Shown here piece by piece: positions 1 to 37,762 of a stretch of 64,000 nucleotides of DNA. Position numbers and translations under genes: made by a program. The notes beneath the pieces were generated by a model that was given only the letters and a program-made list of their open reading frames with translations, made no database searches and was not told the origin of the DNA. The DNA comes from an uncultured bacterium (GTDB taxonomy: Bacteria; Krumholzibacteriota; Krumholzibacteriia; LZORAL124-64-63): contig CAVSGO010000006.1 in assembly GCA_963727525.1 (NCBI GenBank), positions 32,001-96,000 on the forward strand. The letters run 5' to 3'. How positions within the stretch are numbered: the stretch's first letter is position 1; every line of letters starts with the position of its first letter.

Positions 1-2
1 TC

Positions 3-647
3 GACGCCGCTACGGGCGGCGCCCATGCTCTCGGCGCGATCGTCGCCCAGCTGCGCCTCGTGCTCGAGAACAACCTCGCCGGGTTCGTGGGCGTGCAGGA
101 AGTGGCGAACCTGCTTGCCGAGGACGACGCGCTGCCGCGGCTCGAGGGGCAGTCGCTTTGCGCCTTCGCCCAGGTGCTGCGGGCGCTCGTCGAGGAGCGC
201 GTGTCGATCAAGCCGCTGGGGGCCTTGCTCGGGTGCTTCCTGGCCGGCAGTGCGACGAACACACCGCTGTCGGTCATCGTGGAGCAGATGCGGGCGCTTG
301 CGGATGTGACACCGTCATTGCCCGGTACGGCGTCAGGCGAGCGGCTGCTGCGGTTCGATGATGCGCTGACGGCCAGACTGGCGGCCGGACTGATCATCGA
401 GGGTGATGTCGCCATGCTGCGCGGCGAACCGGCGCTCATCCAGGATACCCTCGCTGCCGTGCGCGAGGCCACATCCGGCGCCCTGGTCGGGACGGCGTCG
501 GTCCTGGTGGTGGACGACCCGCGCCTGCGGCGGCCGTTGCGGCGGATCGTCGAGCTGGAGTTCACCGATCTGCCGGTGCTGGCGCGAAGCGAGCTGCCGC
601 CGTCGGTCTCGGCGGACACGGCGCAGACGATCGGGGGCACGCCATGA
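3..647 (+). CDS. FHIPEP-family (FlhA/SctV cytoplasmic domain) protein, 5'-truncated by window edge
   Basis: Frame is open from base 3. Motifs FVGVQEVANLL, QVLRALVEERVSIKPL and RLRRPLRRIVELEFTDLPVLARSEL match the FlhA/SctV C-terminal domain. Confidence 0.8.
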   Translation, partial: DAATGGAHALGAIVAQLRLVLENNLAGFVGVQEVANLLAEDDALPRLEGQSLCAFAQVLRALVEERVSIKPLGALLGCFLAGSATNTPLSVIVEQMRALADVTPSLPGTASGERLLRFDDALTARLAAGLIIEGDVAMLRGEPALIQDTLAAVREATSGALVGTASVLVVDDPRLRRPLRRIVELEFTDLPVLARSELPPSVSADTAQTIGGTP

Positions 648-2233
648 CGCCCCCGCGCACCATCACGGTCCGACTGGGAACCGAGCTGGCGGCGCTCGCG
701 ACGGGCGTGCCCGCGCTCGCGGATCGCCTCACCGGCGTCGTGCGCGACCTGGTCCACGATCTGGCGATCCCGGTCGACTACACGGTGGAGGTGGTCGGCG
801 CCGAGGATGGGCGCCAGGTCACGGTGACGATCGACGGCCAGCCCTGCCGCATACCGGTTTCCGTGGCGAGCACCAGCACCGCGACAGGCGACGACCTTGC
901 GCGCGAACTCGTCGCCGCGCTGCACGCCAGCCGCGAGCTGCTGCTGCCTGCCGACGTCGCCGCGGCGTGCTGGTGCGACTGGATCGACACGACCTCGCCA
1001 CCGCCGGCGGGCACGCTCGCGCTGATGCGTGGTGTGCTGCGGCGCGGTGTCCGCCTCGAACGCCTTCGCGCGGTTCTCGGTTCGCCGATCTCCGATGCCG
1101 ATGCCCTCGAGCAGGCGCTCGCGGCGGTCGACGGACCGCGTTTGCGGGTCTTCGTGAGCACGGAGCAGCACCGGCGACTGTATGACGCGCATGGCGAACC
1201 CATCGCGCTGATTGGCGACTATCCCTCCATCGCGCGGTTGCTGGCCCTCGTCGCGGATGGCCTGTTCTACGAGCTGGGCATCGTGTATCGTCTCGACCAG
1301 GTGGAGACTGACCCGACGCTCGCCCCGGGCGAGATGCGCTTCGCGATCAACGGCATGCGCACGCCGGTGCGGATGGGGCTTCAGCCGGACGAGGTGATGG
1401 TCAACACCACCGTCGATCGGCTCGACCTCGGGGGCCGGCCGACGGTGAATCCGGCGAACCTCAACCCCTGCACCGTGCTGGCGCAGTCGCCGGACGCGCA
1501 GCAGGCGATCACCAGGCAGGGTCTCACGTCGTGGGACGACCATGGCTACCTCATCCTCGAGCTGAGCCAGGCCGTGCGTCGGTACGCCGGCTCGCTCATG
1601 AGCACGGCAGTGGCGCAGTTCCTCTGCGAGCGCTTGCAACTCGCCTTCCCCGACCTCGTGGCGGCGGCCTGCGATCGCTACGACCACGGCACGCTCGCCC
1701 GCGTCCTGCGCGGATTGCTCGACGAGGACATCTGTATCCGCGACCTGCGTACGATTCTCGAGACCCTGCTTGCCTTCCACGGCGTCGTGGACGCGCCGAC
1801 GGGCGAGCTGATCACGTTCCTCTCATCGCCGGGCATCGCGTTGCCCGTCGACGCCGGTTCGCTGCCCTTCCGCGACCCGGTGGTGGCGCGTGTGGAATGC
1901 GTACGCACCATGATGCAACGGGAGATCTCCTCCAGGTACACCCGCGGCCAGTCGGTGCTCACGCCCTTCCTGATCGATCCCGATATCGAGTCGCGGCTGA
2001 AGGACGAGGCCCCGCTGTCGGCCGATGAGCACGCGCGCCTGATCGACGCCATCGGGGTCGAGGTGATGCCGGATCCTGCGCCCACGGCGCCCGTGATCCT
2101 GACCACGGCCACGGTACGCTTGCGCCTGCACCGTGAGATCGAATACGAATACCCGCACGTCGTGGTCCTGGCCTACCAGGACCTGAGTCCCGCGCTGAAC
2201 CTCGAGGTGGCGGCGCGGATCACCTGGAACTGA
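644..2233 (+). CDS. Soluble FHIPEP-family (SctV/FlhA C-domain-like) protein lacking the transmembrane domain
   Basis: Motifs GLFYELGI, VLRGLLDEDICIRDLRTILETL and RLRLHREIEYEYPHVVVLAYQDL; ATGA overlap with the upstream gene; no run of hydrophobic TM helices. Confidence 0.8.
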   Translation: MTPPRTITVRLGTELAALATGVPALADRLTGVVRDLVHDLAIPVDYTVEVVGAEDGRQVTVTIDGQPCRIPVSVASTSTATGDDLARELVAALHASRELLLPADVAAACWCDWIDTTSPPPAGTLALMRGVLRRGVRLERLRAVLGSPISDADALEQALAAVDGPRLRVFVSTEQHRRLYDAHGEPIALIGDYPSIARLLALVADGLFYELGIVYRLDQVETDPTLAPGEMRFAINGMRTPVRMGLQPDEVMVNTTVDRLDLGGRPTVNPANLNPCTVLAQSPDAQQAITRQGLTSWDDHGYLILELSQAVRRYAGSLMSTAVAQFLCERLQLAFPDLVAAACDRYDHGTLARVLRGLLDEDICIRDLRTILETLLAFHGVVDAPTGELITFLSSPGIALPVDAGSLPFRDPVVARVECVRTMMQREISSRYTRGQSVLTPFLIDPDIESRLKDEAPLSADEHARLIDAIGVEVMPDPAPTAPVILTTATVRLRLHREIEYEYPHVVVLAYQDLSPALNLEVAARITWN

Positions 2234-2246
2234 AGGGAGGTGTCCC

Positions 2247-2429
2247 ATGCCCAAGGCCAGACGGAAGACGGCCAGGAAATCCCCGACGACGTCCAGGACC
2301 AAGCGATGGAACTGGACGCCCCGCCGGCTCGAGACACACACGCCGGATCAGCCGCGCGCCGCCGACAGCGACGCGCTCGTCGACCGGCTCAACGCGCAGC
2401 AACCGGAGCAGCCCCGTTCGCGCAAGTAG
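2247..2429 (+). CDS. Small basic hypothetical protein (60 aa)
   Basis: Strong RBS (AAGGGAGG) before the ATG; lies in operon position; Lys/Arg-rich N-terminus. Confidence 0.55.
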   Translation: MPKARRKTARKSPTTSRTKRWNWTPRRLETHTPDQPRAADSDALVDRLNAQQPEQPRSRK

Positions 2430-2466
2430 TCCGACCACGACCGTGTGGTGACACAAAGGAGAAGGC

Positions 2467-2853
2467 ATGCCTGCCATGACGGAAATCGTGCGCTTCGATC
2501 CCAGCGCCCCGATCCAGATCAACATCGTCTCGCGCTCGCCGCACGTGGTGGCTTTCCGCGTGTGGACGCAAGCGCCCGGTCAGGCCGACTGGGCTACCGT
2601 CTTCACCGGCAAGACCGACGACAATGTGCCCGACCACATCGAGATCGCCGCCTTGCCCGACAACGCGCTCATCGCGTGGTGGCTCGGCGTGGGCGGCAAC
2701 GCCAAGACGCCGTTCCGTACCGTGATCACGCTCGCTCAGGACGGCCGTATCCTCGACGGCGGCACGCGTCTGGAAGAGGGCAAGGTCGACGACGACGGCC
2801 TTGCCTTCGTCGAGGGCAAGATCAACCTCGTCGCCCAGAGGGAGACACCATGA
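2467..2853 (+). CDS. Hypothetical protein (128 aa, beta-rich)
   Basis: RBS AAGGAGAAGG; typical GC3 codon usage; ATGA overlap with the next gene. Confidence 0.7.
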   Translation: MPAMTEIVRFDPSAPIQINIVSRSPHVVAFRVWTQAPGQADWATVFTGKTDDNVPDHIEIAALPDNALIAWWLGVGGNAKTPFRTVITLAQDGRILDGGTRLEEGKVDDDGLAFVEGKINLVAQRETP

Positions 2854-3920
2854 CCACGCGAATCCGGATCACGTGTGCAATGTTCGTGCTGGTCGCCGCG
2901 GGGCTCGTGTCTCTGGTGCCGGCACCACTCCTGGCGGTCGACGATGCGAGCAGCGGACTCGATCTGCTATCGCCCCCGGCCTCGCCGGCGTTCACCCTGC
3001 TCGGCGCCACGCCGGAGACGATCCATCGCCCGGAGACGCTCCAGGATCTGGGCGTGGACATGCGGTCGGGCGTTAGCGGCGACGGTCGGGCGGTGAGCGG
3101 ATTCGCGCTCGAGTTCTCGGCCAATCAGATCCTCAAGCCGGCCATCGATCTGAAGCGATACCGCGAGAGCTGGTCGGCCTTCGCGCTGCAGAACCTGCGC
3201 GTGTCGCTGGCCACAGTGCGCGCGGCCGGCGATTCGACGGCCACCGACCTCGCGCTCGGGCTCAGCTTCCCGCTCTTCAACCGCGCCGATCCCATGCGCG
3301 ACAAGGCGTACAGCGATGCCCTCGGCGAGGTTCTCCTGAACGCGGCGCCGTCGCAACCAGGCCAGGACCGCACGATGCTCGAGGCCCGGGCGCGCGAGCA
3401 GCGCCAGGCGCTCTTCGCGCAGTGGCGCGCCGATCACTGGAACGCCTCGCGCGCCGAGATCGCGATGGCGGTGGGCGGCCGGCTCATGGATTCGAAGTTC
3501 GACCAGCTCTACGGCTCGCGCGTCGCGGTGTGGTCGACCCTCGGGCTCCGGCTCGGCACCTGGGGCCAGTTCCTTGCCCTCGCGCGCTACGATCACCTGT
3601 GGGACATCCCGGATCAGCCGGGCGGCGACCAGATCCAGTACGGCGGTCGGATCATCGCGGGTTCGGGTTCGTTCAATCTCTACGTCGAGATGCTAGGGCG
3701 ACGCACGTCCTTCGACACCGCCGTGCTGCCTGATGGCAGCGACTCGGACACGAGCGGTTCGTGGGCCTTCGGCGCCGAGTATCGCATCGCGCAGGGCATC
3801 TGGGTCATGACTGGGCTGGGCAGCCGCTTCGACGAGGCCGTCGCCGGCGCCAGCCGCACGCAGGTGGCTCTGGGCTTGAAGTGGGGCCTCGCCCGCGCGT
3901 CGCGGCTGGGAACGCATTGA
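2850..3920 (+). CDS. Exported protein, probable outer-membrane beta-barrel
   Basis: Signal-peptide-like N-terminus (MTTRIRITCAMFVLVAAGLVSL...); C-terminal half has alternating amphipathic strands (WAFGAEYRIAQGIWVMTGLG, VALGLKWGL). Confidence 0.65.
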   Translation: MTTRIRITCAMFVLVAAGLVSLVPAPLLAVDDASSGLDLLSPPASPAFTLLGATPETIHRPETLQDLGVDMRSGVSGDGRAVSGFALEFSANQILKPAIDLKRYRESWSAFALQNLRVSLATVRAAGDSTATDLALGLSFPLFNRADPMRDKAYSDALGEVLLNAAPSQPGQDRTMLEARAREQRQALFAQWRADHWNASRAEIAMAVGGRLMDSKFDQLYGSRVAVWSTLGLRLGTWGQFLALARYDHLWDIPDQPGGDQIQYGGRIIAGSGSFNLYVEMLGRRTSFDTAVLPDGSDSDTSGSWAFGAEYRIAQGIWVMTGLGSRFDEAVAGASRTQVALGLKWGLARASRLGTH

Positions 3921-3937: not shown

Positions 3938-5662
3938 TCACCTCGTGAGCATCACCTTCACCGAGCCCGCCCCTGCCGCGGTCTCCAGCCGCACCAGGTA
4001 CGGCCCGGACGCCACGGCGCGGCCAGTGGTGTCGGTGCCGTCCCAGCGCACGATGCGATGGCCCGTCGCCAGAGCGGCGCTGACCAGGGTGGCGATATGG
4101 CGGCCGGCGGCGTCGTACACGCGCAATGACACGTCGCCCGCCACGCACACGTCGAAGGCGACGGCGACCTGCGGGTTGAACGGATTCGGAGCCGCCGTCA
4201 GCGCGAGATCGGTGCGCACCGGCGTATCGTGCGCGCCCACCGAGGGAGCGGCGGCGTCACGCACGAGGCGTACGAAATTGAAGATGCGGATGGCGTCGCC
4301 CTGCGGTCCGTGGCCCTCGTGGTAGTTGGCCGGATCGCCGAACTTGGGATCGCTACGCTGCGCGCCCGCGCCGTGCACGTCGACCCAGCCGCCGTTCATG
4401 TAGCCGAGCGCGCGGCCGAACGCGACGTACGCCGCGAATCCCCCACTCACGGGCCCGCCATTCTGGTGGGTCGTGCTCGACCAGTAGTAGGGGAAGTCGG
4501 TCTGGCCGGCCTCGTTGACGATGGTCGTGGCGGTGAAGAGCGGATCGATGGCAGCCGAACCCGAGGTGTCGGGTGAGCGGGTGTAGTCGACCAGGGATTG
4601 CAGCTCCTTGACGTTCGGGAGACGCCAGTCGTCGTGGCCGAGGAACTGCTCAGCGTTGCACGCGTCAGCCCAGGCGAGCGCATCTTCCCAGGCCATGCCC
4701 TCGCCGCTATCATTCTGGCTCCACATCAGCCCGGTAGCCTGGTCGGTGACCGTGCCGTCGCCATTGTCGACGTAGGCCGTCGTCGCGTACAACGGATTCC
4801 CGCGCACGCACTTCACGTAGAACGTCTTCTGGGTGCCGCCCATGTCCAGTCCGTAGCGCTTGATGCGGCCGTCGGCGAAGTTCACGCCGAAGAGGAGCGA
4901 ACCCGCGGCCTGGCTGACGTAGAGCGTGCGCGAGCCGTACTTGGCGTCGATGACCCGCTCGCCGGCGGCCTCGTCGCCATATGCGAAGTCGAAGACCGAG
5001 GTGTCGAGAAACGGTACCAGGTTGACGGGATCGGACTCGCCGCTCGGGTCGAGGCCACGGAAGTCGATCAGCGAGAACAGCTCCTCGATCATGGGCAGAC
5101 GCCAGTCGTCGTGGCCGCCGTAGTCGATCGCGTCGAGAGTGGCCGGATTGGCTTGCAGCTCGTCCCACGTGAACTTGTCGTCGGCGTCGATGGTGCCGTT
5201 GCCGGCGGTGACCGTGAACGCGGCGCTGGCGCCGGGTACGACGGTGAGCGACTGCGGCTGCCCGGTGATGATCGGCGGCATGTCGCCGCCGGTCGTGATC
5301 GTGAACGCGCCCGGGCCGTTGAACACCAGCTCACCATCGGGGGTCGAGAAGGTGACGACGGCATCCACGGAGCCTGGTGTCGTGTCGGCTGGTAGATCGA
5401 AGCTGGCAATGACGGTGTCCTGGGACGGGTGCGAGATCCCGGTGCCGGTGACGTCGCCGATCGTCACGGCCGCTGGCGCGACGCCCGCCGGCGGCGGAGG
5501 CGGCACGTCGGTATCGAGCGTGAATGTCACGAGCAGACCCACCGTGCCGGCGGGGGCCGTGTCGGGCGCGATGGCCACGATCTCGTTCGTATTCTGGGCA
5601 AACCCACTGGCCGTGGTGGCCACGAGCAGGATGGAGGCAAGCATGGTGACTCGGTGATGCAT
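3938..5662 (-). CDS. Secreted DUF1566 (Lcl C-terminal-like) domain protein with Ig-like domains and FlgD-Ig C-terminal domain
   Basis: Signal peptide; two DDWRLP..EL.SL motifs; YVDNGDGTVTDQATGLMW; C-terminal APNPFNP...WDGTD..G..VASG.Y. Confidence 0.8.
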   Translation of the reverse strand: MHHRVTMLASILLVATTASGFAQNTNEIVAIAPDTAPAGTVGLLVTFTLDTDVPPPPPAGVAPAAVTIGDVTGTGISHPSQDTVIASFDLPADTTPGSVDAVVTFSTPDGELVFNGPGAFTITTGGDMPPIITGQPQSLTVVPGASAAFTVTAGNGTIDADDKFTWDELQANPATLDAIDYGGHDDWRLPMIEELFSLIDFRGLDPSGESDPVNLVPFLDTSVFDFAYGDEAAGERVIDAKYGSRTLYVSQAAGSLLFGVNFADGRIKRYGLDMGGTQKTFYVKCVRGNPLYATTAYVDNGDGTVTDQATGLMWSQNDSGEGMAWEDALAWADACNAEQFLGHDDWRLPNVKELQSLVDYTRSPDTSGSAAIDPLFTATTIVNEAGQTDFPYYWSSTTHQNGGPVSGGFAAYVAFGRALGYMNGGWVDVHGAGAQRSDPKFGDPANYHEGHGPQGDAIRIFNFVRLVRDAAAPSVGAHDTPVRTDLALTAAPNPFNPQVAVAFDVCVAGDVSLRVYDAAGRHIATLVSAALATGHRIVRWDGTDTTGRAVASGPYLVRLETAAGAGSVKVMLTR

Positions 5663-5802
5663 GGCGAGACTCCCCAGCACGAATGAACCGGTGGGACGAA
5701 TATGAAAGTCAACGCACGAACCACCAGGAAGCAGCGATCGATCTCGTGCGAACGAGGCCCCCGCGCCGGTCGCGGGGGCCTCACCGAAGTCCGCGTTGTC
5801 GA

Positions 5803-6522
5803 TTACCGGTACAGCGACTTCACCGAACCCCACGTCGATGCGTCTGTCTGCATCGACTTGTCGTTCGCACCTTCGATCTCGATCTCCACCTCGGAGCCCG
5901 TGCCGGGGTCGATGCCGACCACGCACACGTCGTCGATCCAGAATTCCTGGCCCCCCACGGCGAAGTGACGCACCGGCCCGCGGAGCTGGCCGACACCCTT
6001 CTTGCCGCCGGGTACCGGAACCTCGCGCACGCCGTACACGACGCCCGGCGCGATGGCGACCGGAGCCATGTCCAGTTCACCGGCGTACACGGGTGCCGCG
6101 TTCACGCGCAGGTTCTCGAACCCGCCCAGGTCGAGCCAGCGGAAGCGCACGCCCGTGACGCGGATGCCGAGTCCCGTGAGATCAAAATCCAGATTCACGT
6201 TATTCTCGCGGCAGATGTTGATCACGCCGAAGTTGGTCGGCGCGCCGGTCGCCGGCTCGATGCGGGCTCCGCCGAAGCCCGACCCACCGCCGGGGAAAAG
6301 GAGCTCGTGAATCGTGACGTCGATCCCGTCCTCGTTGAAGAGCCAGTCGCCCGGCGCGTAGCCGCCGCCGGGGGCGTATACGGTTCCTGCGGCGAGCCCG
6401 TCGAAGGTGACCTCGGCATCGCAGGCGAAGGCGGAACCGGTCAGGCCCGTGAGAGCCGCGAACACCAGACCCAGCGCCACCGCCCCGATCCTCGACACAA
6501 AATCTTGATGAAACTTACGCAT
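5803..6522 (-). CDS. Secreted hypothetical protein with C-terminal TWGSVKSLYR motif
   Basis: AGGAGG RBS before MRKFHQ; signal peptide ending AFA; C-terminus STWGSVKSLYR. Confidence 0.75.
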   Translation of the reverse strand: MRKFHQDFVSRIGAVALGLVFAALTGLTGSAFACDAEVTFDGLAAGTVYAPGGGYAPGDWLFNEDGIDVTIHELLFPGGGSGFGGARIEPATGAPTNFGVINICRENNVNLDFDLTGLGIRVTGVRFRWLDLGGFENLRVNAAPVYAGELDMAPVAIAPGVVYGVREVPVPGGKKGVGQLRGPVRHFAVGGQEFWIDDVCVVGIDPGTGSEVEIEIEGANDKSMQTDASTWGSVKSLYR

Positions 6523-9086: not shown

Positions 9087-11738
9087 CTAGCGAGCCACCA
9101 CGAGTTTCCGCGTAACGACGCCGCCATCGGTCCAGAGGCGGGCCAGGTACATCCCGCTGGCGACGGCACGGCCCGCGCGGTCGTGGCCGTCCCAGGTCAC
9201 CACGTGGTGACCGGCTTCCAGGGACCCTTGGGTGAGCACGGCCACGCGCTGGCCGCGCAGATCGATCACGTCGAGCCGCACCACGCTCGCGCGATCGAGG
9301 GTGAAGGTGACGCGGGTGGTCGGGTTGAATGGATTGGGTGCGGCTGTCATCTGCGGCCCGGTGACCGCGGGTAGGTCGCCCGGTGCCGCCGTGGGCTCGG
9401 GCGCCGTGATCGAGAACATGCTGCGCCCATGCGTTCCGGCCACGAGCATCCGTGTGGGCTGATGAAACGCAAGGTCCAGCACCGGCACGCGTGGCAGTCC
9501 CGTGCCCAGCGGCGCCCAGTCCGCGCCCGGGTCCTCTGTCACGTACACGCCGACGTCCGTGGCCACGTAGAGCGTGGACGGATGGTCCGGGTCCACGACG
9601 ATGTCATTGACCGGCGCCGCCGGCAACCCCTGCCCGATGTCCTGCCACGAGGCGCCACTGTTCTGGGAGCGGTAGACGTAGCTGATGGGCTCATCCCAGC
9701 GCAACCCGCTGAACGTGACGTAGACGATCTGCGCGCTGGTGGGATCGACAGTGACGCAGGTGACCCAGCGTTGCGGCAAACCGGCAGTGATGTCCGTCCA
9801 GTTGCCCATGAGCGGATTGAGGCGCCACAGACGCCCATCGTCCGTGCCGGCATACACGACGCTCGTTGTCGAAGGCGCCACGGCGATCGTCGTGATCGTG
9901 CCATAGCCCATGCCGTGATCGCCGTATGTGAGGTCGCTGCTGATCGGCTGCCACGAGCCGGCGGCATCGGTGGTCCGGTAGACGCGCTGGCTGCCGTAAT
10001 AGAGAACATCCGGGTTCGACGGGTCCATCACCACCGGCGTCATCCAGTTGTGTCGATCGTTGCCGCCGATGCCGTCGGTGGCGGGGTTGAAAAAGGTTCC
10101 GCCGTTGGTCGACTTGTAGAGGTTGCCATACTGGTACTCGGCGTAGATGACGTCGCTGTCGGTGGGATCGACGAGACAGTAGAATCCGTCACCGCCGAAG
10201 ATCGCTTCCCAGTTGTCCGCCCCGCCCGCGGGCGTGCGCAGCGAACCGTTGTCCTGGGTGCCGCCATACAGACGCTGCGGCTGAAGCTCATCGACGGCGA
10301 TGGCGTAGAACTGGCTCGTGGGCTGATCGTAGAGCTTGCTCCAGTTCGAACCGCTGTCGCCCGTGTGGTAGAGTCCGCCGTCGTTTCCCTCGTAGGCGAC
10401 CGCGGGCTGACCGAGGCAGAACGCCAGCGCGTGGTGATCGACGTGCATGTTGCCGCCCTCTTCGAACCAGCTCGAGCCGCCGTTCGTGGATCGGACCATG
10501 GGCACGCCGAGCGCGAATACGTTGTTCGGATTCGAGGGATCCACGCGGATGTTGCCGAAGTACCAGCCGAAATCGCTGTACATGCCAGACAGGGCGGCGT
10601 CATTGGTGCGCGTCCAGGTGTCGCCGCCGTTGGTGCTCTTGTAGACCCCCGCGAAACCGGCAGCGGCATCGGCGTAGATGGCATAGAGCACGTTCGCCTG
10701 GCTGACGCACTGGGTCAGGCCGATGCGGCCCACGTTGCTGCCCGAGGGGAGACCATTGGTCAGTTCCTGCCACGTGTCGCCACCATCGGTGGTGCGCCAG
10801 ATGCCGCTCGACGGGCCGCCGCTACGCCGATAGTTCAGACCGCGCACGCGCTCCCACATGGCGGCGAACAGGATGTCGGGGTTCGTGGGATCCATGACGA
10901 GATCGGTCGCGGCCGTGGAGTCGGTGAGGGCGAGACAACGATCCCACGTGGTGCCCCCGTCGTTCGTCCGGTAGATCCCGCGATTCGGCCCGGTGCCGAA
11001 GAGCTTGCCCGTGGCCGCGACGTAGATGCGGTTGGCGTCGGTAGGGTGCACGCGGATGCGCGCGATGTAGCGCGTGTCCGCGAGGCCGATGTTCTGCCAG
11101 GTCGCGCCGGCGTCGGGCGACCGGTAGAGCCCCAGGCCGAAGAAACTGTAGCTGTTGGCGTTGGCCTCGCCGGTGCCGGCGTAGATCACGTCGGGGTTCT
11201 GTGGATCGAGTGCGACGGCCCCGACCGGCAACACGGCCTGAGCGTCGAAAAGCGGCTCCCAGGTGACGCCGCCGTCGCTCGTACGCAGCACACCGCCACT
11301 GGCCGTGGCCGCGTAGGCGATGTTCGCATCGGTGGGATGCACCGCGAGATCGGTGATCCTGGCGCCGATGTTGGTGGGCCCGCGCTGTTCCCAGACGCCG
11401 TCCAGCAGCAAGCTCTTGTCTCCGGCGTCCCGCCGCAGCGCCTGCAACTGGTCGAGAGCCTCGGCGTCCGCGAGCATGGTGCGTAGTGCGTTGGCCTTGA
11501 TATCTCCGTGCGGATAGGCGCGCTGTCTCCAGAACCACTCGTTGGGCCGGGCGTTCGGCTCTTCGCCTTCGGCTTCCTCGTGTTCCAGCGGTGGCGTCGC
11601 ATCGGCGTCCATGCTTGCAGCAGGCAGCATGGCGAGATCGGCGTTTGCAGGTTCACTGGCACCGCGGGGTCGCAGGACGAGAGCCCCCAGGGCGATCACG
11701 ACGAAGATGACGACGAGTGCGAGGATACGGCGGTGCAT
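9087..11738 (-). CDS. Secreted BNR/Asp-box (VPS10/sortilin-like) beta-propeller protein, putative glycosyl hydrolase, with FlgD-Ig C-terminal domain
   Basis: Many S/T-x-D/N-GG-x-TW Asp-boxes; HVDHHAL; GGTQDNG; C-terminal APNPFNP. Confidence 0.85.
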   Translation of the reverse strand: MHRRILALVVIFVVIALGALVLRPRGASEPANADLAMLPAASMDADATPPLEHEEAEGEEPNARPNEWFWRQRAYPHGDIKANALRTMLADAEALDQLQALRRDAGDKSLLLDGVWEQRGPTNIGARITDLAVHPTDANIAYAATASGGVLRTSDGGVTWEPLFDAQAVLPVGAVALDPQNPDVIYAGTGEANANSYSFFGLGLYRSPDAGATWQNIGLADTRYIARIRVHPTDANRIYVAATGKLFGTGPNRGIYRTNDGGTTWDRCLALTDSTAATDLVMDPTNPDILFAAMWERVRGLNYRRSGGPSSGIWRTTDGGDTWQELTNGLPSGSNVGRIGLTQCVSQANVLYAIYADAAAGFAGVYKSTNGGDTWTRTNDAALSGMYSDFGWYFGNIRVDPSNPNNVFALGVPMVRSTNGGSSWFEEGGNMHVDHHALAFCLGQPAVAYEGNDGGLYHTGDSGSNWSKLYDQPTSQFYAIAVDELQPQRLYGGTQDNGSLRTPAGGADNWEAIFGGDGFYCLVDPTDSDVIYAEYQYGNLYKSTNGGTFFNPATDGIGGNDRHNWMTPVVMDPSNPDVLYYGSQRVYRTTDAAGSWQPISSDLTYGDHGMGYGTITTIAVAPSTTSVVYAGTDDGRLWRLNPLMGNWTDITAGLPQRWVTCVTVDPTSAQIVYVTFSGLRWDEPISYVYRSQNSGASWQDIGQGLPAAPVNDIVVDPDHPSTLYVATDVGVYVTEDPGADWAPLGTGLPRVPVLDLAFHQPTRMLVAGTHGRSMFSITAPEPTAAPGDLPAVTGPQMTAAPNPFNPTTRVTFTLDRASVVRLDVIDLRGQRVAVLTQGSLEAGHHVVTWDGHDRAGRAVASGMYLARLWTDGGVVTRKLVVAR

Positions 11739-14809: not shown

Positions 14810-16720
14810 CTATTTCAGCAGGGTGCACTTCCTGGTCAAATTCGTTTGTCCGGCGCGCAGGCGGTAGACATAGGTGCCCGACGCGAGGTCGCGCGGTTGC
14901 CACGTGATTTCGTGACGGCCGGCTTCCAGCGAACCGCGAACCAGGTTTGCGACCTCGCGTCCGGCCATGTCGTACACCGTCAGCGACACGGGCGCGGCCG
15001 AGTCGAGGCGGAAGGCGATCAAGGTGGCCGGGTTGAACGGGTTGGGCGAGTTCTGCGCGAGGGCCACCGTGGCGCCGGCTCCTGGCACGTCGGTGATGCC
15101 GGCCGTTTCGGCAAGGGTGACCGAGCGCGTCGTCTGCCCGTCCACGACACAGTGGTAGACGCCGTAGTCGGCTGCGGTCACGCCCGCGAGCGCGAGGTCG
15201 GCGGCCGTTTCACCCGGGAGCGGCGCACCGTCGCGGTACCACTGGTAGCTGCTGCCGCTCAGCTCGGATTCGATCGCGAAGGTGACGACGGCGAGGCCCT
15301 GAGATCCGGCTCCGACTGCCTGATCGGTGGTGCCTGCCATCGTGATCTTGGTATTGGTGAATGCGCCCTGGTTCACGAGGTCACCCGTGGCGCGGATCCG
15401 CAGGGGATAGGTGCCGTCCTGCACGGTGCCGGTGTTCTGCAGCGTGCCTTCGATGACCGCCTCGGCGCCCTGATAGTAGTCGCAGGTCACCGTGCCGACG
15501 ATCGTCAGCCCGGCGGTGAATGTGGTCGTGCCTGCGATCTTCGCATCGCCCAGCACGCCGTGGTCCACGGTCACGCCCGAGATGGAGCCGGACCCGGTCA
15601 CGCGGATCACGTTGCCATTGGCGATCACGGTGCCCGATCCCAGACCGCCGAAGTTCGTGAACTCGAGCGAGCTCCCGGGAGCCAGTGCGAGGGTGCCGAC
15701 GCCGAGTCCGACGCCGCTGGCCAGGCGCAGCGGGGTGTCGGCGACGATGGTCGCCGCCTGGAACTCCGGCAGGAAGATCGGAGCCGTGCACACGGCGTCC
15801 GGGCTCATGCTCAGGTGGTGGGTCGTACCCACGCCCGTGAGCTCGAGCGTCGGGTTGCTGATCGTGCCATTGTTCTCGACATCGCCTCTCACGCTGAGCG
15901 AGAAGCCGTAGTCGTCGTTGGTGATGAGCCCGTTATTGACGAGATCACCATTGACGACGACGCCACCACCGCCCGTGGCGGTGGGATTCCGCAGGCTGTT
16001 CATGACGACCAGCCGCGTGACGACCGTCGCTCCCGCGGAGCGCGCGTCGCCGACGAAGACGACATCGTCGAGCGTGCAGGACTGGAGATACGAGTACGAC
16101 TCGAACCGCAGCTCGTTCCCGTTGGCGGCGATGGGGCCCTTGCAGATGGTGGCGGTGAGGGTGAGCGGGCAGTCGGGGGACAGGACGAGGCGGCCCCCGG
16201 TGAAGTCGATGTCGCCGCCCACACTGATGGGCGTGGTGGCGACCAGGTCGCCCGAGGCGCCGGCCGCGAACGACAGCGTCGTGTTGCAGTCGCTCCCGGC
16301 GCCCTGCGACATCATCCGCGTGGCACTTCCGGTGACGCGGGCCCGCCAGGGCGTGAAGACGCCGGAGTTGTGGAAGCTGCCGCCGAACTCGACCTCGAGA
16401 TAGTACCCATTCACGTTGCCGACGGCGCCGAGGTTTGTGAAGTCGCCGGCCACCTGCAACGTGCGCGGCGGCGCGACCAGGGCGCCGTTCACCGATCCCA
16501 GGGCTTCGACAGCGATGGTCTGGCACGGGTCGAGGCCATCGATGAGCACGGGCCCGGCGACCACGACATCGTCGCCGGCACCCGGAACGACGCCGCCAAC
16601 CCACGTGGCCGCGCTCGACCAGTTGCCGCCGGCGGCAGTGGAAGTGATTGTGGCGGCCTCGGATAGCGAGGCCAGGGATATCAGGACAAGCGCCATGATG
16701 AGGAACGAGCGAGTTCTCAT
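14810..16720 (-). CDS. Secreted beta-helix/Ig-domain protein with FlgD-Ig C-terminal domain
   Basis: Signal peptide; GNWSSAATWVGGVVP start; Ig motif YQWYRDG...DYGVYHC; C-terminal QNSPNPFNP. Confidence 0.8.
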   Translation of the reverse strand: MRTRSFLIMALVLISLASLSEAATITSTAAGGNWSSAATWVGGVVPGAGDDVVVAGPVLIDGLDPCQTIAVEALGSVNGALVAPPRTLQVAGDFTNLGAVGNVNGYYLEVEFGGSFHNSGVFTPWRARVTGSATRMMSQGAGSDCNTTLSFAAGASGDLVATTPISVGGDIDFTGGRLVLSPDCPLTLTATICKGPIAANGNELRFESYSYLQSCTLDDVVFVGDARSAGATVVTRLVVMNSLRNPTATGGGGVVVNGDLVNNGLITNDDYGFSLSVRGDVENNGTISNPTLELTGVGTTHHLSMSPDAVCTAPIFLPEFQAATIVADTPLRLASGVGLGVGTLALAPGSSLEFTNFGGLGSGTVIANGNVIRVTGSGSISGVTVDHGVLGDAKIAGTTTFTAGLTIVGTVTCDYYQGAEAVIEGTLQNTGTVQDGTYPLRIRATGDLVNQGAFTNTKITMAGTTDQAVGAGSQGLAVVTFAIESELSGSSYQWYRDGAPLPGETAADLALAGVTAADYGVYHCVVDGQTTRSVTLAETAGITDVPGAGATVALAQNSPNPFNPATLIAFRLDSAAPVSLTVYDMAGREVANLVRGSLEAGRHEITWQPRDLASGTYVYRLRAGQTNLTRKCTLLK

Positions 16721-20045: not shown

Positions 20046-20627
20046 ATGACGGAAGAATCGCGGGTCGACGTGACGCGCATGCTGCAGTCCATCGAAGGTT
20101 CGGCCGCCGACGAAGGCGCGGCCAATCGCCTCTTCGCGGCCGTCTATGACGAGCTGCACGGCATCGCCGCCGGGCTCATGCGCCGCGAGCGTGACGACCA
20201 CACCCTGCAGCCCACGGCCCTCGTGCACGAGGCGTACATGCGCCTCGTCGACCAGACCCGGGCCGACTGGCAGAACCGTGCCCACTTCTACGGCATCGCC
20301 GCGCGCGCGATGCGCCAGATCCTGGTGGATCACGCGCGCAAGCACACCGCCGACAAGCGCGGTGGCCAGTGGCGCCGCGTGACCCTGGACGACAACGTGG
20401 CCGAGGCCGAGCAACTCTCCCTCGATATCCTCGCCGTACACGAGGCCCTCGAGCAACTCGCCCTCCGGGACGAGCGCATGGCGAAGGTGGTGGAGCTGCG
20501 CATCTTCGCGGGCCTGCACGCGCGCGAGGCCGCGCACGTGCTCGGGGTGTCGAAGCGCACCGTGGACGAGGACTGGCGCGTGGCGCGCATGCTGCTGGGC
20601 CGCGCGCTGTCGGCGGGCGCGGATTGA
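20046..20627 (+). CDS. ECF RNA polymerase sigma factor (kinase-associated, TIGR02999-like)
   Basis: Motifs VYDELHGIA, HTLQPTALVHEAY, NRAHFYGIAARAMRQILVDHAR and VVELRIFAGL. Confidence 0.93.
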   Translation: MTEESRVDVTRMLQSIEGSAADEGAANRLFAAVYDELHGIAAGLMRRERDDHTLQPTALVHEAYMRLVDQTRADWQNRAHFYGIAARAMRQILVDHARKHTADKRGGQWRRVTLDDNVAEAEQLSLDILAVHEALEQLALRDERMAKVVELRIFAGLHAREAAHVLGVSKRTVDEDWRVARMLLGRALSAGAD

Positions 20628-23287
20628 TGAACGACGAGCGCTTCGCCCGGTTGCGCGCCATCCTGCTGCATGCCGCCGACCTGCCGGTCGACGCGCGCAG
20701 TGCCTACCTTGGCGATGCCTGCGCCGGCGACGCGGAGCTGCGGGCCGAGGTGGAGGCGCTTCTGCCCCATGACGTGGATGCGCCGTCGATCGTCGCCACG
20801 TCCGGCCTTGGCCGTCGTCTCGCCGCGGAGGCGGGGCAGGCATTCCTGCGCGCGCCGAACGCCGCACCCCCGGAGCGCATCGGTCCCTATCGTATCCTGG
20901 AGGTGCTCGGCGAGGGCGGCATGGGCGTGGTCTATCGCGCGGAGCAGGAGGAGCCCATACGCCGCGAGGTGGCGCTCAAGCTCGTGCGCTGGGGCTTCGA
21001 CACCGATCAGGTGGCCACGCGCTTCGCCGCCGAACGCCAGGTGCTGGCGCGCATGGAACACCCGCACATCGCGCGCGTGCTCGACGCCGGTCAGGACGAC
21101 GCCGGCCGACCTTACTTCGTGATGGAGCTGGTGCGGGGTGTGCCCATCACGGCGTACTGCGAGCAGCACGCGCTGTCGGTCGACGGCCGGCTGGCCCTAA
21201 TGCTCGCCATCTGTCGCGCCGTGCAGCATGCGCATCAGAAGGGCGTGATCCACCGCGACCTCAAGCCCTCGAACCTGCTCGTGAGCGAGAGCGATGGCGC
21301 GCCGCTGCCCAAGGTGATCGACTTTGGTATTGCCAAGGCTCTCGACCAGGCCGACGACGGTCTCACGCGCGAGGGCCAGCCCATCGGCACGGTGCGCTAC
21401 ATGAGCCCGGAGCAGGCGCGCGGCGTGAGCAGCGAGATCGACGTGCGCAGCGATGTGTATGCCCTCGGCGTGATCCTCTACGAGCTGCTCACCGGGGCGC
21501 CACCCTACGTCGCCGATGAGACCTCGCTGATCGGTCAGATGCGGGTGGTGATCGAGGCGCCGCCCCGGTCGTTTCGCGAGACCGCACCCGCCGATCGCCA
21601 CCTCGACGCTGACCTGGAGACGATCGTCCGCAAGGCCCTGGCGAAGGACCCGGCCGAACGCTACCAGAGCGCCGCTGCCCTGGGTGAGGACATCGAGCGC
21701 TTCCAGGCCTCGCTACCCATCCTCGCGCGCCCGCCCAGCGCCATGTATCAGCTCCGCAAACTGGTGGCGCGCAACCGCGTGCCATCGACATTGATCGCGG
21801 GCATCGTGCTGCTGATCGTGGGCTTCGGCATCTGGATGAGCGTGCTCTACGTGCGATCGGCGCGCAATCTGCGCCGCGCCGTCGTCGCCGAGAGCGAGTC
21901 GCGTCAGGTGACGGACTTCGTCACCGGTCTGTTCGAGATCTCGCATCCGAGCGAGTCGCGCGGCAATGCGGTGACGGCGCGCGAGATCCTCGACACCGGC
22001 GCCGAGAAGATCGAGACCGAACTGGGCGATCAGCCGGAGGTGCAGGAGCGGCTGCTGCACACGCTCGGCGTGGTGTACTCGGGTCTGGGGCTCTATGACA
22101 GATCGGGAGAGCTGCTGGAGGCCGCCCTCGCGCGCCGTCGCGCCGTCGGCCACGATGACAACCTCGAGGTCGCGTCGGTGCTCACCGACCTGGGCGCCAT
22201 CTATCGCACGCGCGGCCAGGTCGCCCAGGCCGACACCGCCTACCAGGCTGCCCTGGACATCCGCCAGCGTCTGCTGCCCGCCACCGACTGGCGCGTGGCC
22301 GCGGCCGAGGCCAACGTCGGCGGGATCCGGGCGCTGCAGGGCCAGACCGACGAGGCGGCCCGGATGCTCGTGGACGCCGCCTCCTCGCTCGAAGCCCACG
22401 CGCCGGCCGGCTCGCTCGAGCTGCCGGCCACCTGGAACAGCCTGGCGCAGGTGCGCAAGGCGCAGCGCGATTTCGCCGCCGCCGAGTCGCTCGACACGCG
22501 GGCCCTCGCCCGTCGCGAGGAGCTGCTGCCGCCCGACCACCCGGAGATCGCCGAGTCGCTCAACAACCTCGCCGCCCTCTACTGGGCCCAGGGTCGTCTC
22601 GACGAGGCGGCACCCCTGGCCGAGCGCGCCCTCGCCATCCAGGAGAAGATCCTCGGCGCCGACCACCCCGACTTCGCCCTGGCGTTGCTCAACCAGGCCG
22701 CCATCGACCAGGACGTGGGCCGCCTCGAGATCGCCGAGCGCGAGCTGACGCGCGCGGTGGGCATTCTCGAGCGCAGCCTCGGCCCCGACGACGTGCAGGT
22801 GGCGTACGCCCTGAACAACCTCGGCACCCTGTACCGCAAGCAGGACCGCCTGGATCTCGCCGCGTCCACCCTCGAGCGTTCCCTCGCGATCAAGCGCGCG
22901 AAGCTGGGCGACGATCACCTCTCGGTGGCTACCGCCCGCAACAACCTCGGTGAGGTGCGCCTGGCTCAGGGCCAGACCCGCATCGCCATCGCACTCTTCA
23001 CCGAGGCCATGGCCATCCGCACGCAGCACTACGGCGGCGACGACGCCCGCACGGCATTGCCCATGCACAACCTCGGCCTCGCGTATCTGAAGTCCGGCCG
23101 GCTGGACTCGGCAAGCGCCGACCTCGACCGCGCCCTCGCCATTCGCGTCGCGAAGCTGGGCCCGGTGCACGTGCGGATCGCGGAATCCCTGGAGGCCTGC
23201 GCCGAGCTGGCGCGGAAACTGGGGCAGAGTGCGAGGGCGGACTCCTTGCTGGCGCGAGCGAAGGCGGTACGGGGGAAGCTCGAGTAG
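20627..23287 (+). CDS. Membrane Ser/Thr protein kinase with C-terminal TPR repeats
   Basis: Hanks motifs LGEGGMGVVY, VALK, HRDLKPSN, DFG and YMSPEQ; one TM helix; kinesin-light-chain-type TPRs (SLNNLA..Y); TGATG coupling to the sigma gene. Confidence 0.95.
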   Translation: MNDERFARLRAILLHAADLPVDARSAYLGDACAGDAELRAEVEALLPHDVDAPSIVATSGLGRRLAAEAGQAFLRAPNAAPPERIGPYRILEVLGEGGMGVVYRAEQEEPIRREVALKLVRWGFDTDQVATRFAAERQVLARMEHPHIARVLDAGQDDAGRPYFVMELVRGVPITAYCEQHALSVDGRLALMLAICRAVQHAHQKGVIHRDLKPSNLLVSESDGAPLPKVIDFGIAKALDQADDGLTREGQPIGTVRYMSPEQARGVSSEIDVRSDVYALGVILYELLTGAPPYVADETSLIGQMRVVIEAPPRSFRETAPADRHLDADLETIVRKALAKDPAERYQSAAALGEDIERFQASLPILARPPSAMYQLRKLVARNRVPSTLIAGIVLLIVGFGIWMSVLYVRSARNLRRAVVAESESRQVTDFVTGLFEISHPSESRGNAVTAREILDTGAEKIETELGDQPEVQERLLHTLGVVYSGLGLYDRSGELLEAALARRRAVGHDDNLEVASVLTDLGAIYRTRGQVAQADTAYQAALDIRQRLLPATDWRVAAAEANVGGIRALQGQTDEAARMLVDAASSLEAHAPAGSLELPATWNSLAQVRKAQRDFAAAESLDTRALARREELLPPDHPEIAESLNNLAALYWAQGRLDEAAPLAERALAIQEKILGADHPDFALALLNQAAIDQDVGRLEIAERELTRAVGILERSLGPDDVQVAYALNNLGTLYRKQDRLDLAASTLERSLAIKRAKLGDDHLSVATARNNLGEVRLAQGQTRIAIALFTEAMAIRTQHYGGDDARTALPMHNLGLAYLKSGRLDSASADLDRALAIRVAKLGPVHVRIAESLEACAELARKLGQSARADSLLARAKAVRGKLE

Positions 23288-23417
23288 GAACGCGGATGAC
23301 ATGCCCCGGGCCCGACCTGTATCCTGGGCGAGCCAGCGGCCGCTGGAGGTGGGCGAAGATCCGATCCTGGCGTTCGTGACCCGCATGGTCGACGATAGCG
23401 CTACGGGAGGTGCGCCG

Positions 23418-24074
23418 ATGTCGATCACCGCAGACGAGGAACGCCGGATCCAGGCAACCGCCGATCAGCTCGAGGCGAGGACCGGCGTGCAGGTGCTCGC
23501 GGCCGTCATCGGGAAGGCGGATCACTATCCGGAGGTACCCTGGAAGGCGTTCGCCCTGGCCGCGGCTCTGGCGGCTTCCGTCCTCATCGTGCGAGCCTTC
23601 GTGGCTCCATCCTGGTTCGCACCCTTCGATGCCGCCATGGACGCCGTGGTCGTGCTCGGGGTCGGCATGCTCGCGGCCGTGCTGGCGGCCTGCTGGCCGC
23701 CGCTGGCCCGCCGGATCGTCGGGTCCCCACGGCTGCAGGGCGAGGTCGAGCAATATGCGCGAGCGTTCTTCCTCGAACGCGAGCTGTTCGCGACGCGCGA
23801 GCGCAACGGCATCCTCCTGCTGATCAGTCTCTTCGAGCGCAAGGTCGTCGTGCTGCCGGACAGCGGCGTCGCGGCTCGGCTGAGCGACGGCGCCCTGGCC
23901 GGGGTGATCGATGGCATGCGCACTCCACTCGCTCGCGGTCGGCGAGCCGAGGCGGTGCTGGCGGGCCTCACGGCCCTCGAGAACGCGCTGCTCGCCGCCG
24001 GCGTGCGTGAGACAGCGGGAGGTCCGGACGAGATTCCGTCCGAGTTCGTCGAGGACAGGGGGGAGGAGCGATGA
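23418..24074 (+). CDS. TPM domain membrane protein
   Basis: Motifs LEARTGVQV and TRERNGILLLISLFERKVVVLPDSG; 2 TM helices. Confidence 0.85.
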   Translation: MSITADEERRIQATADQLEARTGVQVLAAVIGKADHYPEVPWKAFALAAALAASVLIVRAFVAPSWFAPFDAAMDAVVVLGVGMLAAVLAACWPPLARRIVGSPRLQGEVEQYARAFFLERELFATRERNGILLLISLFERKVVVLPDSGVAARLSDGALAGVIDGMRTPLARGRRAEAVLAGLTALENALLAAGVRETAGGPDEIPSEFVEDRGEER

Positions 24075-25036
24075 GAACGCGCCTGCGCAACGCCGGCACC
24101 CTGGTCGTCACTCTCCTTGTCGTGACCATGGCCAGCGCCACGCGTGGCGAGGTGGCGGTTCCCTATCTTACCGGCCGCGTCGTCGACACGGCAGAGATCC
24201 TGGGTTCGGACGCCAGGGCACGGGTCACCGAGCACCTGCGTGCCCACGAGGAGCGTAGCGGCGACCAGATCGCAGTGCTCACGATACCCAGCCTCGAGGG
24301 CGAGAGCGTTGAAGACTTCGCCCAGCGGGTCTTCGAGGCATGGCGGCTGGGTCAAGCCGACCGCGATAACGGCGTGTTGATGGTGGTGGCCGCCGCGGAT
24401 CGTCGGATGCGCATCCAGGTCGGATATGGCCTGGAGCCCACGCTCACGGATCTCGCCGCGGGGCGCATCATCCGCAACGTCATCACGCCGCCTTTCCGCG
24501 AGGGCGACTACGACGCGGGCGTCGAGGCCGGTGTGGACGCGATCGTCGCTGTTCTCGAAGGACAAGGTGCTCCTGCGGAAGCACCTGTGGCGGAGAGTCA
24601 TCATGCGAATTTCCACATGGAAGGCCCCGACCTGTCGGTCATGGAACGCATTCTTTTCGGCGCCTTCATCTTCGGCATCATCGGTCTCTTCACGGTGCTC
24701 GGCGTGCTGATGCCGGGCGGCGGCTGGGCTCTCTACCCCTTCCTCATCCCCTTCTGGGCGACCTTCCCGATCGTCGTCGTCGGCGTGCGCGGGGCCTTCG
24801 TGCTGCTCATCGCCTACCTCGTGCTCTTCCCTGTTGCCAAGATCCTGGTGTCGCGGTCTCCCCGGTACCGGCACGCCCGCCACGCGCTGAAGACGAAGGG
24901 TGTCGCCCATGTCGGAGGTTTCACCTTCGGCGGCGGCGGTAGCGCCGGTTCGCATGGCTCGTGGAGCTCTGGCAGTAGCAGCTTCTCCGGCGGCGGCGGG
25001 CATTCCGGCGGCGGCGGTGCTTCCGGAAGCTGGTGA
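24071..25036 (+). CDS. TPM domain protein (YgcG family)
   Basis: Motifs LTGRVVDTA, DNGVL and RIQVGYGLEPTLTD; Gly/Ser-rich tail FSGGGGHSGGGGASGSW. Confidence 0.92.
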   Translation: MRTRLRNAGTLVVTLLVVTMASATRGEVAVPYLTGRVVDTAEILGSDARARVTEHLRAHEERSGDQIAVLTIPSLEGESVEDFAQRVFEAWRLGQADRDNGVLMVVAAADRRMRIQVGYGLEPTLTDLAAGRIIRNVITPPFREGDYDAGVEAGVDAIVAVLEGQGAPAEAPVAESHHANFHMEGPDLSVMERILFGAFIFGIIGLFTVLGVLMPGGGWALYPFLIPFWATFPIVVVGVRGAFVLLIAYLVLFPVAKILVSRSPRYRHARHALKTKGVAHVGGFTFGGGGSAGSHGSWSSGSSSFSGGGGHSGGGGASGSW

Positions 25037-30524: not shown

Positions 30525-30717
30525 CGTGAGCCTCCGGTTCGGGGGGCGGGGGGCAGGCATCGCGCCGGGATTATACCACGACGCGCGCCAGGTGCGCGAA
30601 GGAAACGAGACGAGGAAGGCATGCGATACGGTGAACACGGCGGACCTGGCCGGTCGTGGTGCCGGCGTCATCGCCGTCGACCTGCAGGTCACGGCGGTGC
30701 GCAGGATAGCGAATGGG

Positions 30718-37760: not shown

Positions 37761-37762
37761 TC

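Follow-up and report, generated by a model that had tools for sequence, protein, structure and literature searches.

Paired genes for FlhA/SctV-type C-terminal domains as a candidate conflict-system module

Organization of the locus and the products of genes 1 and 2

The window analysed here is a stretch of 64,000 nt from a genome assembly (contig CAVSGO010000006.1, hereafter C6, positions 32001-96000), and at its start lie five closely spaced open reading frames (ORFs) on the plus strand, the first two of which, genes 1 and 2, encode the C-terminal cytoplasmic domain of the export-gate protein FlhA/SctV (FHIPEP). Genes 1 and 2 share an ATGA at 644-647, a second ATGA overlap at 2850-2853 joins the gene for a 128-aa protein to the gene for an exported protein, and the two remaining gaps are 13 and 37 nt. 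The GC content at third codon positions (GC3) is 0.87-0.89 for all five ORFs, a coding signature in this DNA of 64-73% GC, and neither promoter-like nor terminator-like sites were found between window positions 2100 and 4300. The first ORF continues past the 5' window edge: it opens at C6:28082 (L007:12082), 3,919 bases 5' of the window, and ends at window position 647. Because the ORF 5' of gene 1 is on the opposite strand, gene 1 is the first gene of the operon. A preliminary description of this DNA had proposed two tandem, coupled genes for FlhA/SctV C-domains and no other flagellar or type III secretion system (T3SS) gene in the window. Both statements hold: the Pfam matches are C-terminal and the genes overlap, and in a family scan none of the 36 other window ORFs matched a flagellar or T3SS core family.

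Gene 2 matches Pfam FHIPEP (PF00771) with 98.7 bits over profile positions 363-533 and 545-655, and the FHIPEP matches of genes 1 and 2 span profile positions ~323-656, leaving positions 1-320, the polytopic membrane domain, unmatched in both. The two proteins score far below the cut-offs of the NCBIfam equivalogs, with 46 and 82.4 bits against FlhA (TIGR01398, cut-off 772) and 35.8 and 86.5 bits against SctV (TIGR01399, cut-off 692). By Kyte-Doolittle hydropathy, gene 2 has no transmembrane (TM) segment, the single borderline stretch at residues 196-214 being the conserved DGLFYELG strand; as a control, the canonical FlhA of the same genome shows at least five TM segments by the same hydropathy. 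An AlphaFold2 (AF2) model of gene 2 based on an 11-sequence alignment (A1) reached a predicted local distance difference test score (pLDDT) of 85 and a predicted template modelling score (pTM) of 0.87. Using this model, the best Foldseek match was CdsV (6wa6; E 8e-23, TMt 0.75-0.81), followed by FlhA_C, YscV, EscV, InvA, and MxiA, and TM-scores against solved SctV_C/FlhA_C chains were 0.73-0.82 in whole-chain matches. Hydropathy, the model, and Foldseek agree with the earlier claim that gene 2 is complete and TM-less. In phmmer searches of the PDB, gene 2 matched CdsV (4e-22), YscV (2.5e-15), Helicobacter pylori FlhA (6e-11), and Salmonella FlhA (~1e-6), and by this measure it appears closer to injectisome SctV than to FlhA. 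The phmmer alignments to CdsV and YscV are interrupted between residues 377 and 413, where the model places strands at 378-383 and 398-402 that form a family-specific insertion (Table 1). No family match was found for residues 1 to ~190 (window 644-1213), and PADLOC-DB 2.0 had no match for gene 2. We note that the N-terminal part of g2-type proteins (the type of gene 2) in four related loci (L035, L072, L074, and L087) gave very weak second matches, with scores of -2 to 12.7, to the helical middle of a hidden Markov model (HMM) of the gene 2 C-domain; this part may have arisen as an incomplete copy of the C-domain that has since degenerated.

Gene 1, of which only the 3' end lies in the window, is no clipped FlhA/SctV gene but the gene for a 1521-aa TM-TPR-FHIPEP_C protein opening its own operon. 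The 214 residues encoded in the window match PF00771 with 49.9 bits (profile positions 456-656 of 657), and in Pfam the full protein matches FHIPEP with 65.9 bits at its C-terminal end as well as TPR families, with repeats at residues ~500-700 and ~1070-1180 and a coiled-coil-like stretch at 669-781. Hydropathy places TM segments at 32-54 and 73-106. An AF2 model of residues 1-650, which is of modest confidence (pLDDT 64.6, four-sequence alignment), contains two long helices, then a small alpha/beta domain (115-220), and then helical repeats. Foldseek matched this model to TPR superhelices only and gave no named match for the alpha/beta domain, and an Atlas search with residues 1-480 returned TPR-type clusters only; within the alpha/beta domain, S176-H177-I178 and G182 are invariant across 14 sequences. 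A truncated or pseudogenised flhA was considered and rejected, given an intact frame, a GC3 of 0.87, and 40% identity over residues 5-1349 to the counterpart in a related locus (L079). In PADLOC-DB 2.0, gene 1 had only a chance-level match to LmuB (E 0.006) within the coiled coil. Pfam detected no NTPase domain in genes 1 and 2.

Residues 1190-1521 of gene 1 were modelled in complex with gene 2. All three runs gave the complex a score of 0.84, compared with 0.00 for the highest-scoring of three controls; in the benchmark of this score, 116 of 157 solved complexes and 2 of 215 mismatched pairs attained that mark. The pLDDT of the partners was at least 86, and the runs shared at least 80% of their contacts. 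The predicted interface comprises residues 1337-1368 of gene 1 and nearby stretches, facing residues 200-217, 322-345, 365-401, and 426-435 of gene 2; it takes in the DGLFYELG motif as well as residues 379-401 of the family-specific insertion. The predicted contact is made through the helical mid-domain, which we take to be the region that builds the solved nonameric FlhA/SctV rings. The model supports binding of the two proteins as a 1:1 contact rather than as a ring.

Distribution of the pair and its genomic neighbourhood

Searching 1.84 billion representatives with gene 2 by phmmer yielded 1,688 hits with E <= 1e-3, and 342 of them remain at a limit of E <= 1e-30. The top 150 of the 1,688 (E < 1e-44; clusters at 50% identity) are ~520-560, ~1,300-1,420, or ~2,000 aa in length, and the long members among them match gene 2 at their C-terminus. 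A word-indexed search listed 10 non-self relatives of gene 2 (451-569 aa, 31-53% identity) with PF00771 as their only family. Scanning 44 representatives of at least 600 aa, we found 24 that score more than 200 bits to FHIPEP in two to three stretches, which we read as two tandem C-domains, and 21 of these 24 have TPRs; other architectures among the 44 were a C-terminal FGE-sulfatase (n=2), an N-terminal DUF4118 (n=1), and C-terminal TPRs (n=1).

For the gene context, we used the best 80 of 459 relative-encoding stretches from a profile scan of species-representative genomes. By tblastn, a gene-1-type match lies directly 5' of a gene-2-type match in 20 of these 80 loci, and in three of the 20 (L031, L060, and L068) the two are fused, with the g1-type domain N-terminal to the g2-type domain and, thus, in the same order as the genes. 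The pair loci represent at least eight phyla, including Chloroflexota, Acidobacteriota, Verrucomicrobiota, Bacteroidota, Cyanobacteria, and Proteobacteria as well as the archaeal Methanomicrobiales and Heimdallarchaeota; the names attached to the bacterial loci are Anaerolineae, Ardenticatenaceae, Pyrinomonadaceae, Blastocatellia, Bryobacterales, Verrucomicrobiae, Draconibacterium, Saprospiraceae, Pelagihabitans, a Bacteroidetes metagenome-assembled genome (MAG), Thiodiazotropha, Smithella, Deltaproteobacteria, Pseudomonadota, and Cyanobacteria. Four further loci end at contig edges (L039, L076, L077, and L088). The remaining 56 are mostly from Myxococcota and Bdellovibrionales MAGs, and in at least 40 of them crude ORF calls gave a full-length protein of ~707-745 aa with the canonical hydrophobic FHIPEP N-terminus. 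This full-length orphan form, seen in many loci of the range L036-L107 (for example, L037:8798-10957, L053:8825-10972, and L094:8828-10951), is also present in Myxococcus, Pyxidicoccus, and Corallococcus genomes, and no obvious flagellar or T3SS genes surround it on crude maps, no scan having been aimed at them.

Scored with the gene 2 C-domain HMM, the downstream genes of the pairs reach 270-460 bits, the Myxococcota full-length form ~380, the upstream genes 30-150, and canonical FlhA ~100. A quick maximum-likelihood tree of 55 rows places 18 of the 19 g2-type rows in a single clade and 14 of the 16 g1-type rows in another (support in the Shimodaira-Hasegawa-like approximate likelihood-ratio test of 100 and 99, respectively); the same loci cluster within each clade, and the Myxococcota full-length form sits beside the g2-type clade. 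We read the two genes as co-inherited paralogues. We regard genes 1 and 2 as a self-contained two-gene module of a widespread and seemingly undescribed family. Gene 1 lies outside any flagellar or T3SS cluster, and in 20 of the 80 loci the homologue of gene 2 has a TPR and FHIPEP_C neighbour that is either immediately 5' of it or fused to it.

The genome itself contains one full-length FHIPEP gene (C7:975306-977276; 858.8 bits over profile positions 1-656), which is adjoined by the sole FlhB match of the genome (C7:977395-978417); this statement on the flagellar gate covers FlhA and FlhB. The apparent uncoupling from a flagellum put forward earlier applies to the locus; the genome does encode a flagellar export gate, on a different contig. 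Among 61 genomes (own included), 45 gave a match to gene 2. The non-self matches cover gene 2 residues ~200-527 at 25-37% identity in frames of 690-776 aa, with three shorter exceptions (345, 546, and 560 aa) that are near contig starts and apparently cut short; the genome's own canonical FlhA, at 4.3e-15, falls within their range, and we assign these matches to canonical FlhA. A gene 2-like copy was not found in the 60 related genomes searched, nor was the pair found in any of the 35 same-family genomes with an FlhA match. A scan for close relatives of gene 2 found nothing in genome or metagenome contigs, although the same scan with P0004, which is 53% identical, also missed P0004's own contig. 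For the flanks, 30 relatives were compared: the 277-aa ORF upstream had a match in 3 of them and the Lcl_C gene downstream in 14, and no contig carried both.

We examined the flanking ORFs of the 20 pair loci using Pfam, considering same-strand, closely spaced partners. At least one CHAT, caspase, TIR, STAND-NTPase, or SLATT domain is encoded in 13 of the 20. CHAT proteases are found in six loci (L033, L034, L035, L078, L082, and L087) and caspase-domain proteins in three (L031 with two copies, each with EAD2; L032; and L060, where the caspase domain is fused to TIR). TIR domains are found in four (L029; L060; L071 as TIR-NACHT-FGE-sulfatase; and L103, fused directly to an FHIPEP C-domain), and SLATT_4 in one (L080). 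STAND-type NTPases are confined to L029, in which nSTAND1/AAA_22 is fused to a further FHIPEP C-domain, and L071. Two archaeal loci encode a TPR protein of ~155-160 aa 3' of the pair with a TPR_3 match above cut-off; TPR_3 is the repeat type of class II secretion chaperones, and these small archaeal proteins look similar to such chaperones. In L033, a calpain-type protease follows further along. In four CHAT loci, two of them archaeal, the CHAT gene is preceded by a gene for a protein of ~351-360 aa without Pfam or PADLOC match, which may be a fourth constant component of the CHAT subtype. In a Chloroflexota locus (L028:6092-9579) and a Flavobacteriia locus (L080:11114-14462), the pair adjoins the same two-gene set, encoding a ~663-aa protein without family and a metallo-beta-lactamase-fold protein that matches PADLOC LmuA (E 3.7e-14 for the L028 copy); the set could represent a separate system or else an additional partner.

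The copy in the window is a rarer, membrane-anchored, effector-less variant of the pair family. The N-terminal 635 residues of gene 1 recur among the 80 loci only in L079, L074, and L068 (32-40% identity); in databases, this N-terminus has 13 non-self relatives of 1515-1994 aa, and PF00771 is listed for 11 of them. The N-terminal TM pair is limited to the big subunits with this N-terminus, i.e. those of our locus, L068, L074, and L079, and in these four loci no protease or TIR gene was found beside the pair. In L079, the pair stands alone between genes for orotidine monophosphate decarboxylase and dihydroorotate dehydrogenase on one side and for a phosphoribosyltransferase and aspartate carbamoyltransferase on the other, so that two genes seem to be enough.

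The 60-aa, 128-aa, and exported proteins encoded downstream had been described as part of the same operon. Coding-type ORFs are indeed present there, and they are probably co-transcribed with the pair here; however, tblastn of the three proteins against the 80 related loci gave no hits, and the three genes appear as a local addition outside the conserved module. Because of its GC3 and the GGGAGG site upstream, the 60-aa ORF is probably a real gene local to this lineage. The 128-aa and exported proteins were not found in 40 relatives. Neither Pfam nor NCBIfam matched any of the three, and PADLOC, to which the 60-aa protein was not put, matched neither of the other two. The exported protein has three homologues in 5.8 billion proteins (66, 33, and 33% identity). 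In the Atlas, unnamed clusters (360-400 aa) match it with a score of 0.97, and the named clusters nearest to it, which are outer-membrane barrels, score 0.87-0.88, a weak lead; it is possibly an outer-membrane beta-barrel of an unnamed family.

Interpretation and alternative explanations

From what the sequences show, namely the identity of the domains, a conserved pairing with occasional fusion, two clades of paralogues, and the genes around the pair, we derive the working hypothesis, to which we assign a probability of roughly 0.55, that the pair forms a system of the conflict or cell-death type whose base is an FlhA_C-like, hetero-oligomeric ring of two paralogues. Specifically, the g1-type subunit with its long TPR arrays would provide the sensor or binding surface, the g2-type subunit would be the constant partner, and the two would assemble into a hetero-oligomeric FlhA_C-like ring or stack that gathers attached or neighbouring output modules. 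In most relatives, these outputs would be CHAT/caspase proteases, TIR domains, and STAND NTPases, following an apoptosome/NLR-like logic. In the window form, the inner membrane would be where the assembly acts, its output being provided by the clustering of TM hairpins, and we suggest that the hairpin, perhaps together with the small alpha/beta domain, stands in for a separate effector. The preliminary description had envisaged a soluble hetero-oligomeric scaffold in export, signalling, or conflict. The fusions, the two clades, and the complex score (0.84 versus 0.00) favour the hetero-oligomer, whereas solubility does not apply to the membrane-anchored gene 1; and because CHAT, caspase, TIR, NACHT/STAND, EAD2, and SLATT genes are present in 13 of the 20 operons, conflict fits best among the three roles.

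Several observations weigh against the conflict reading. The genes flanking the pair in the window are ordinary genes; Pfam, PADLOC, and the ORF scan identified no effector or effector-associated domain in this window; and an effector-type domain was not seen in seven of the 20 pair loci. CHAT, caspase, TIR, and TPR proteins are found outside defence, too, and in PADLOC the caspase and TIR partners are recognised, but no model matches either of the two FHIPEP proteins. The g1-type C-domain is very divergent here, with the 65.9 bits in Pfam and less than 10 bits per stretch with the gene 2 HMM. The related loci are not independent of each other and were gene-called by a crude longest-ORF picker; the tree is a quick search that carries no rooting or donor conclusion, and its seven canonical-FlhA rows were disregarded, as the longest-ORF shortcut can take an off-frame ORF in high-GC DNA. 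Because homo-nonameric SctV_C/FlhA_C rings have already been solved, the complex score may partly be a memory of them. Finally, a 1:1 nonamer of two subunits is impossible.

A more far-reaching version, which we hold only tentatively, is that the ring domain of the T3SS gate has become an NTPase-free soluble signalling hub, in which two co-evolving FlhA_C paralogues would act in an apoptosome-like manner and link sensing by the TPRs to an output that is caspase-like, TIR-based, or at the membrane, in bacteria as well as in archaea, including Asgard lineages. Under this version, the surfaces that dock chaperone-substrate complexes in secretion would be reused for triggers or effectors.

The effector-type neighbourhood would apply equally if the FHIPEP C-domains were baits that mimic the gate ring and catch an invader protein targeting FlhA/SctV, with the TPRs and effectors acting upon capture. 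We consider this unlikely: Bacteroidota and the archaeal MAG loci of Methanomicrobiales and Heimdallarchaeota have the pair, yet these groups are not known to possess an FlhA/SctV gate to mimic, and two constant, co-evolving paralogues together with fusion suit a structural core better than a variable bait. Similarly improbable is a non-defence regulatory scaffold, in which a TPR/FlhA_C assembly would control proteolysis or signalling, e.g. in development or stress, in organisms with complex lifestyles. Signalling commonly uses TPR, CHAT, and caspase proteins, the genome has five other CHAT proteins elsewhere, and the ORF scan of the window found no defence genes near the pair, all as such a scaffold would predict; its difficulty lies in the TIR, NACHT/nSTAND, EAD2, SLATT, and FGE-sulfatase partners of the relatives, which are the customary set in conflict systems, and in a patchy distribution, the pair not having been found in 60 relatives.

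The tight spacing of the five ORFs without a terminator-like site between 2100 and 4300, and the fact that all five genes were not found in the relatives searched, would agree with a local membrane export or sorting device in which a membrane-anchored ring of genes 1 and 2 handles the three downstream products. This version of the export role named in the preliminary description seems very unlikely to us, as those products had no hits in the 80 loci, L079 as the closest analogue has the pair only, and neither a pore-forming FHIPEP N-domain nor a SctRSTU-type partner is present. We give the least credence to a flagellar accessory function, i.e. soluble FlhA_C paralogues that join or cap the genome's own FlhA ring and regulate export. 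The genome is that of a flagellated bacterium (FlhA and FlhB on C7), and co-assembly of FlhA_C-like domains is possible in principle, but the pair and the flagellar genes are on different contigs, all 35 same-family genomes with an FlhA match appear to do without the pair, the pair occurs in archaeal and Bacteroidota loci, and by sequence gene 2 is nearer to injectisome SctV and the Myxococcota full-length form than to the FlhA of its own genome.

Other features of the window and comparison with known systems

Elsewhere in the window, six predicted secreted proteins encoded on the minus strand carry a C-terminal FlgD_ig Ig-like domain; their other domains are Lcl_C, Sortilin-Vps10, and, in two proteins, subtilase, while two have no other family. 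Rather than being a flagellar element, FlgD_ig seems to serve these proteins as a common C-terminal tag for sorting or anchoring, and the first of the six also gave sub-threshold matches to type IX secretion system sorting domains. The sulfatase and the radical-SAM/SPASM protein presumably form an anaerobic sulfatase-maturing enzyme pair (Table 1).

Table 1 Features of the locus, the window, and related loci (window positions unless a locus is named)
Feature	Position	Strand	Remarks
Gene 1, 3' end	1..647	+	Last 214 aa of the 1521-aa protein; g1-type (divergent) FHIPEP C-domain
Gene 2, 529 aa	644..2233	+	N-terminal extra part ~1-190, then complete four-subdomain FlhA_C/SctV_C ~195-529; g2-type
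DGLFYELG motif, gene 2 residues 205-212	1256..1279	+	Start of FHIPEP C-domain; invariant in 11/11 A1 sequences
Beta-hairpin insertion, gene 2 residues ~378-402	1775..1849	+	Not present in solved SctV chains
60-aa basic ORF	2247..2429	+	GC3 0.89; GGGAGG site 6 nt upstream
128-aa ORF, no family	2467..2853	+	GC3 0.87; ATGA overlap with next gene
356-aa exported protein	2850..3920	+	GC3 0.87; hydrophobic N-terminus 4-32
FlgD_ig proteins	3938-5926, 9087-11738, 14810-16720, 28773-30758, 39021-42791, 42874-44247	-	Pfam
Ser/Thr protein kinase fused to long TPR_12/TPR_10 arrays (972 aa), then two TPM-domain proteins	20369-25036	+	
663-aa ORF without Pfam family, one-base gap, then 462-aa HD_5/HD-domain protein	32001-35381	+	
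Sulfatase, then radical-SAM/SPASM protein with C-terminal SEC-C motif	36138-38989	+	
~355-aa pre-CHAT protein	L033:4581-5636, L034:4460-5527, L035:1388-2470, L078:2635-3714		Conserved, no family

FlhA/SctV, the major subunit of the export gate of flagella and injectisomes, belongs to the most thoroughly studied secretion proteins, and the accepted view of its C-terminal ring is that of a platform dedicated to docking in these machines. The pair has the same four-subdomain cytoplasmic fold; unlike FlhA/SctV, it is without the FHIPEP membrane domain, the two TM helices of gene 1 being unrelated to that domain, and no SctRSTU/FliPQR-FlhB genes adjoin it, no family search having been aimed at FliPQR and the ATPase. 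A further difference is that the pair is made up of two paralogues that have diverged, that lie in tandem or are fused, and that are combined with TPR, TIR, STAND, or FGE-sulfatase; it also extends to archaeal loci. A large family (at least 150 clusters at 50% identity with E < 1e-44; 1,688 hits in total) uses the ring domain without the gate. Because the g2-type protein groups with the orphan full-length Myxococcota form, the family also bears on the evolution of the gate's cytoplasmic domain.

Close parallels are the conflict systems described by Kaur, Burroughs, Iyer & Aravind (eLife 2020, 2021). The relatives of the pair share with them CHAT, Peptidase_C14, EAD2, TIR, NACHT/nSTAND, SLATT, and FGE-sulfatase, and the logic in common is a repeat sensor, a multimerising core, and an effector. 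The constant core here is the FlhA_C pair and not a vWA-MoxR, STAND, or GTPase module, an NTPase is present in only two of the 20 pair loci, and the window copy is without effector genes. The main texts PMC7159879 (2020) and PMC8195603 (2021) make no mention of FlhA, FHIPEP, T3SS, 'type III secretion', or flagell*, nor does the former mention SctV or LcrD. In the literature, we found nothing linking FHIPEP with an effector-associated domain, caspase, or anti-phage activity, or FlhA with a CHAT domain, and searching for FHIPEP with archaea returned unrelated matter only; the family is apparently undescribed. If the conflict reading is correct, the immunity and cell-death systems of prokaryotes would gain, with the pair, a new kind of oligomerising core, and the two-gene form in the window and L079 would be a tractable case for studying ring assembly and binding. 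By analogy, the outline would resemble that of STAND/NLR oligomers such as the apoptosome and Avs/NACHT proteins, in which C-terminal or flanking repeats sense and a ring module gathers effectors; in contrast to these oligomers, most members of the pair family are without NTPase, and the ring module is unrelated in fold.

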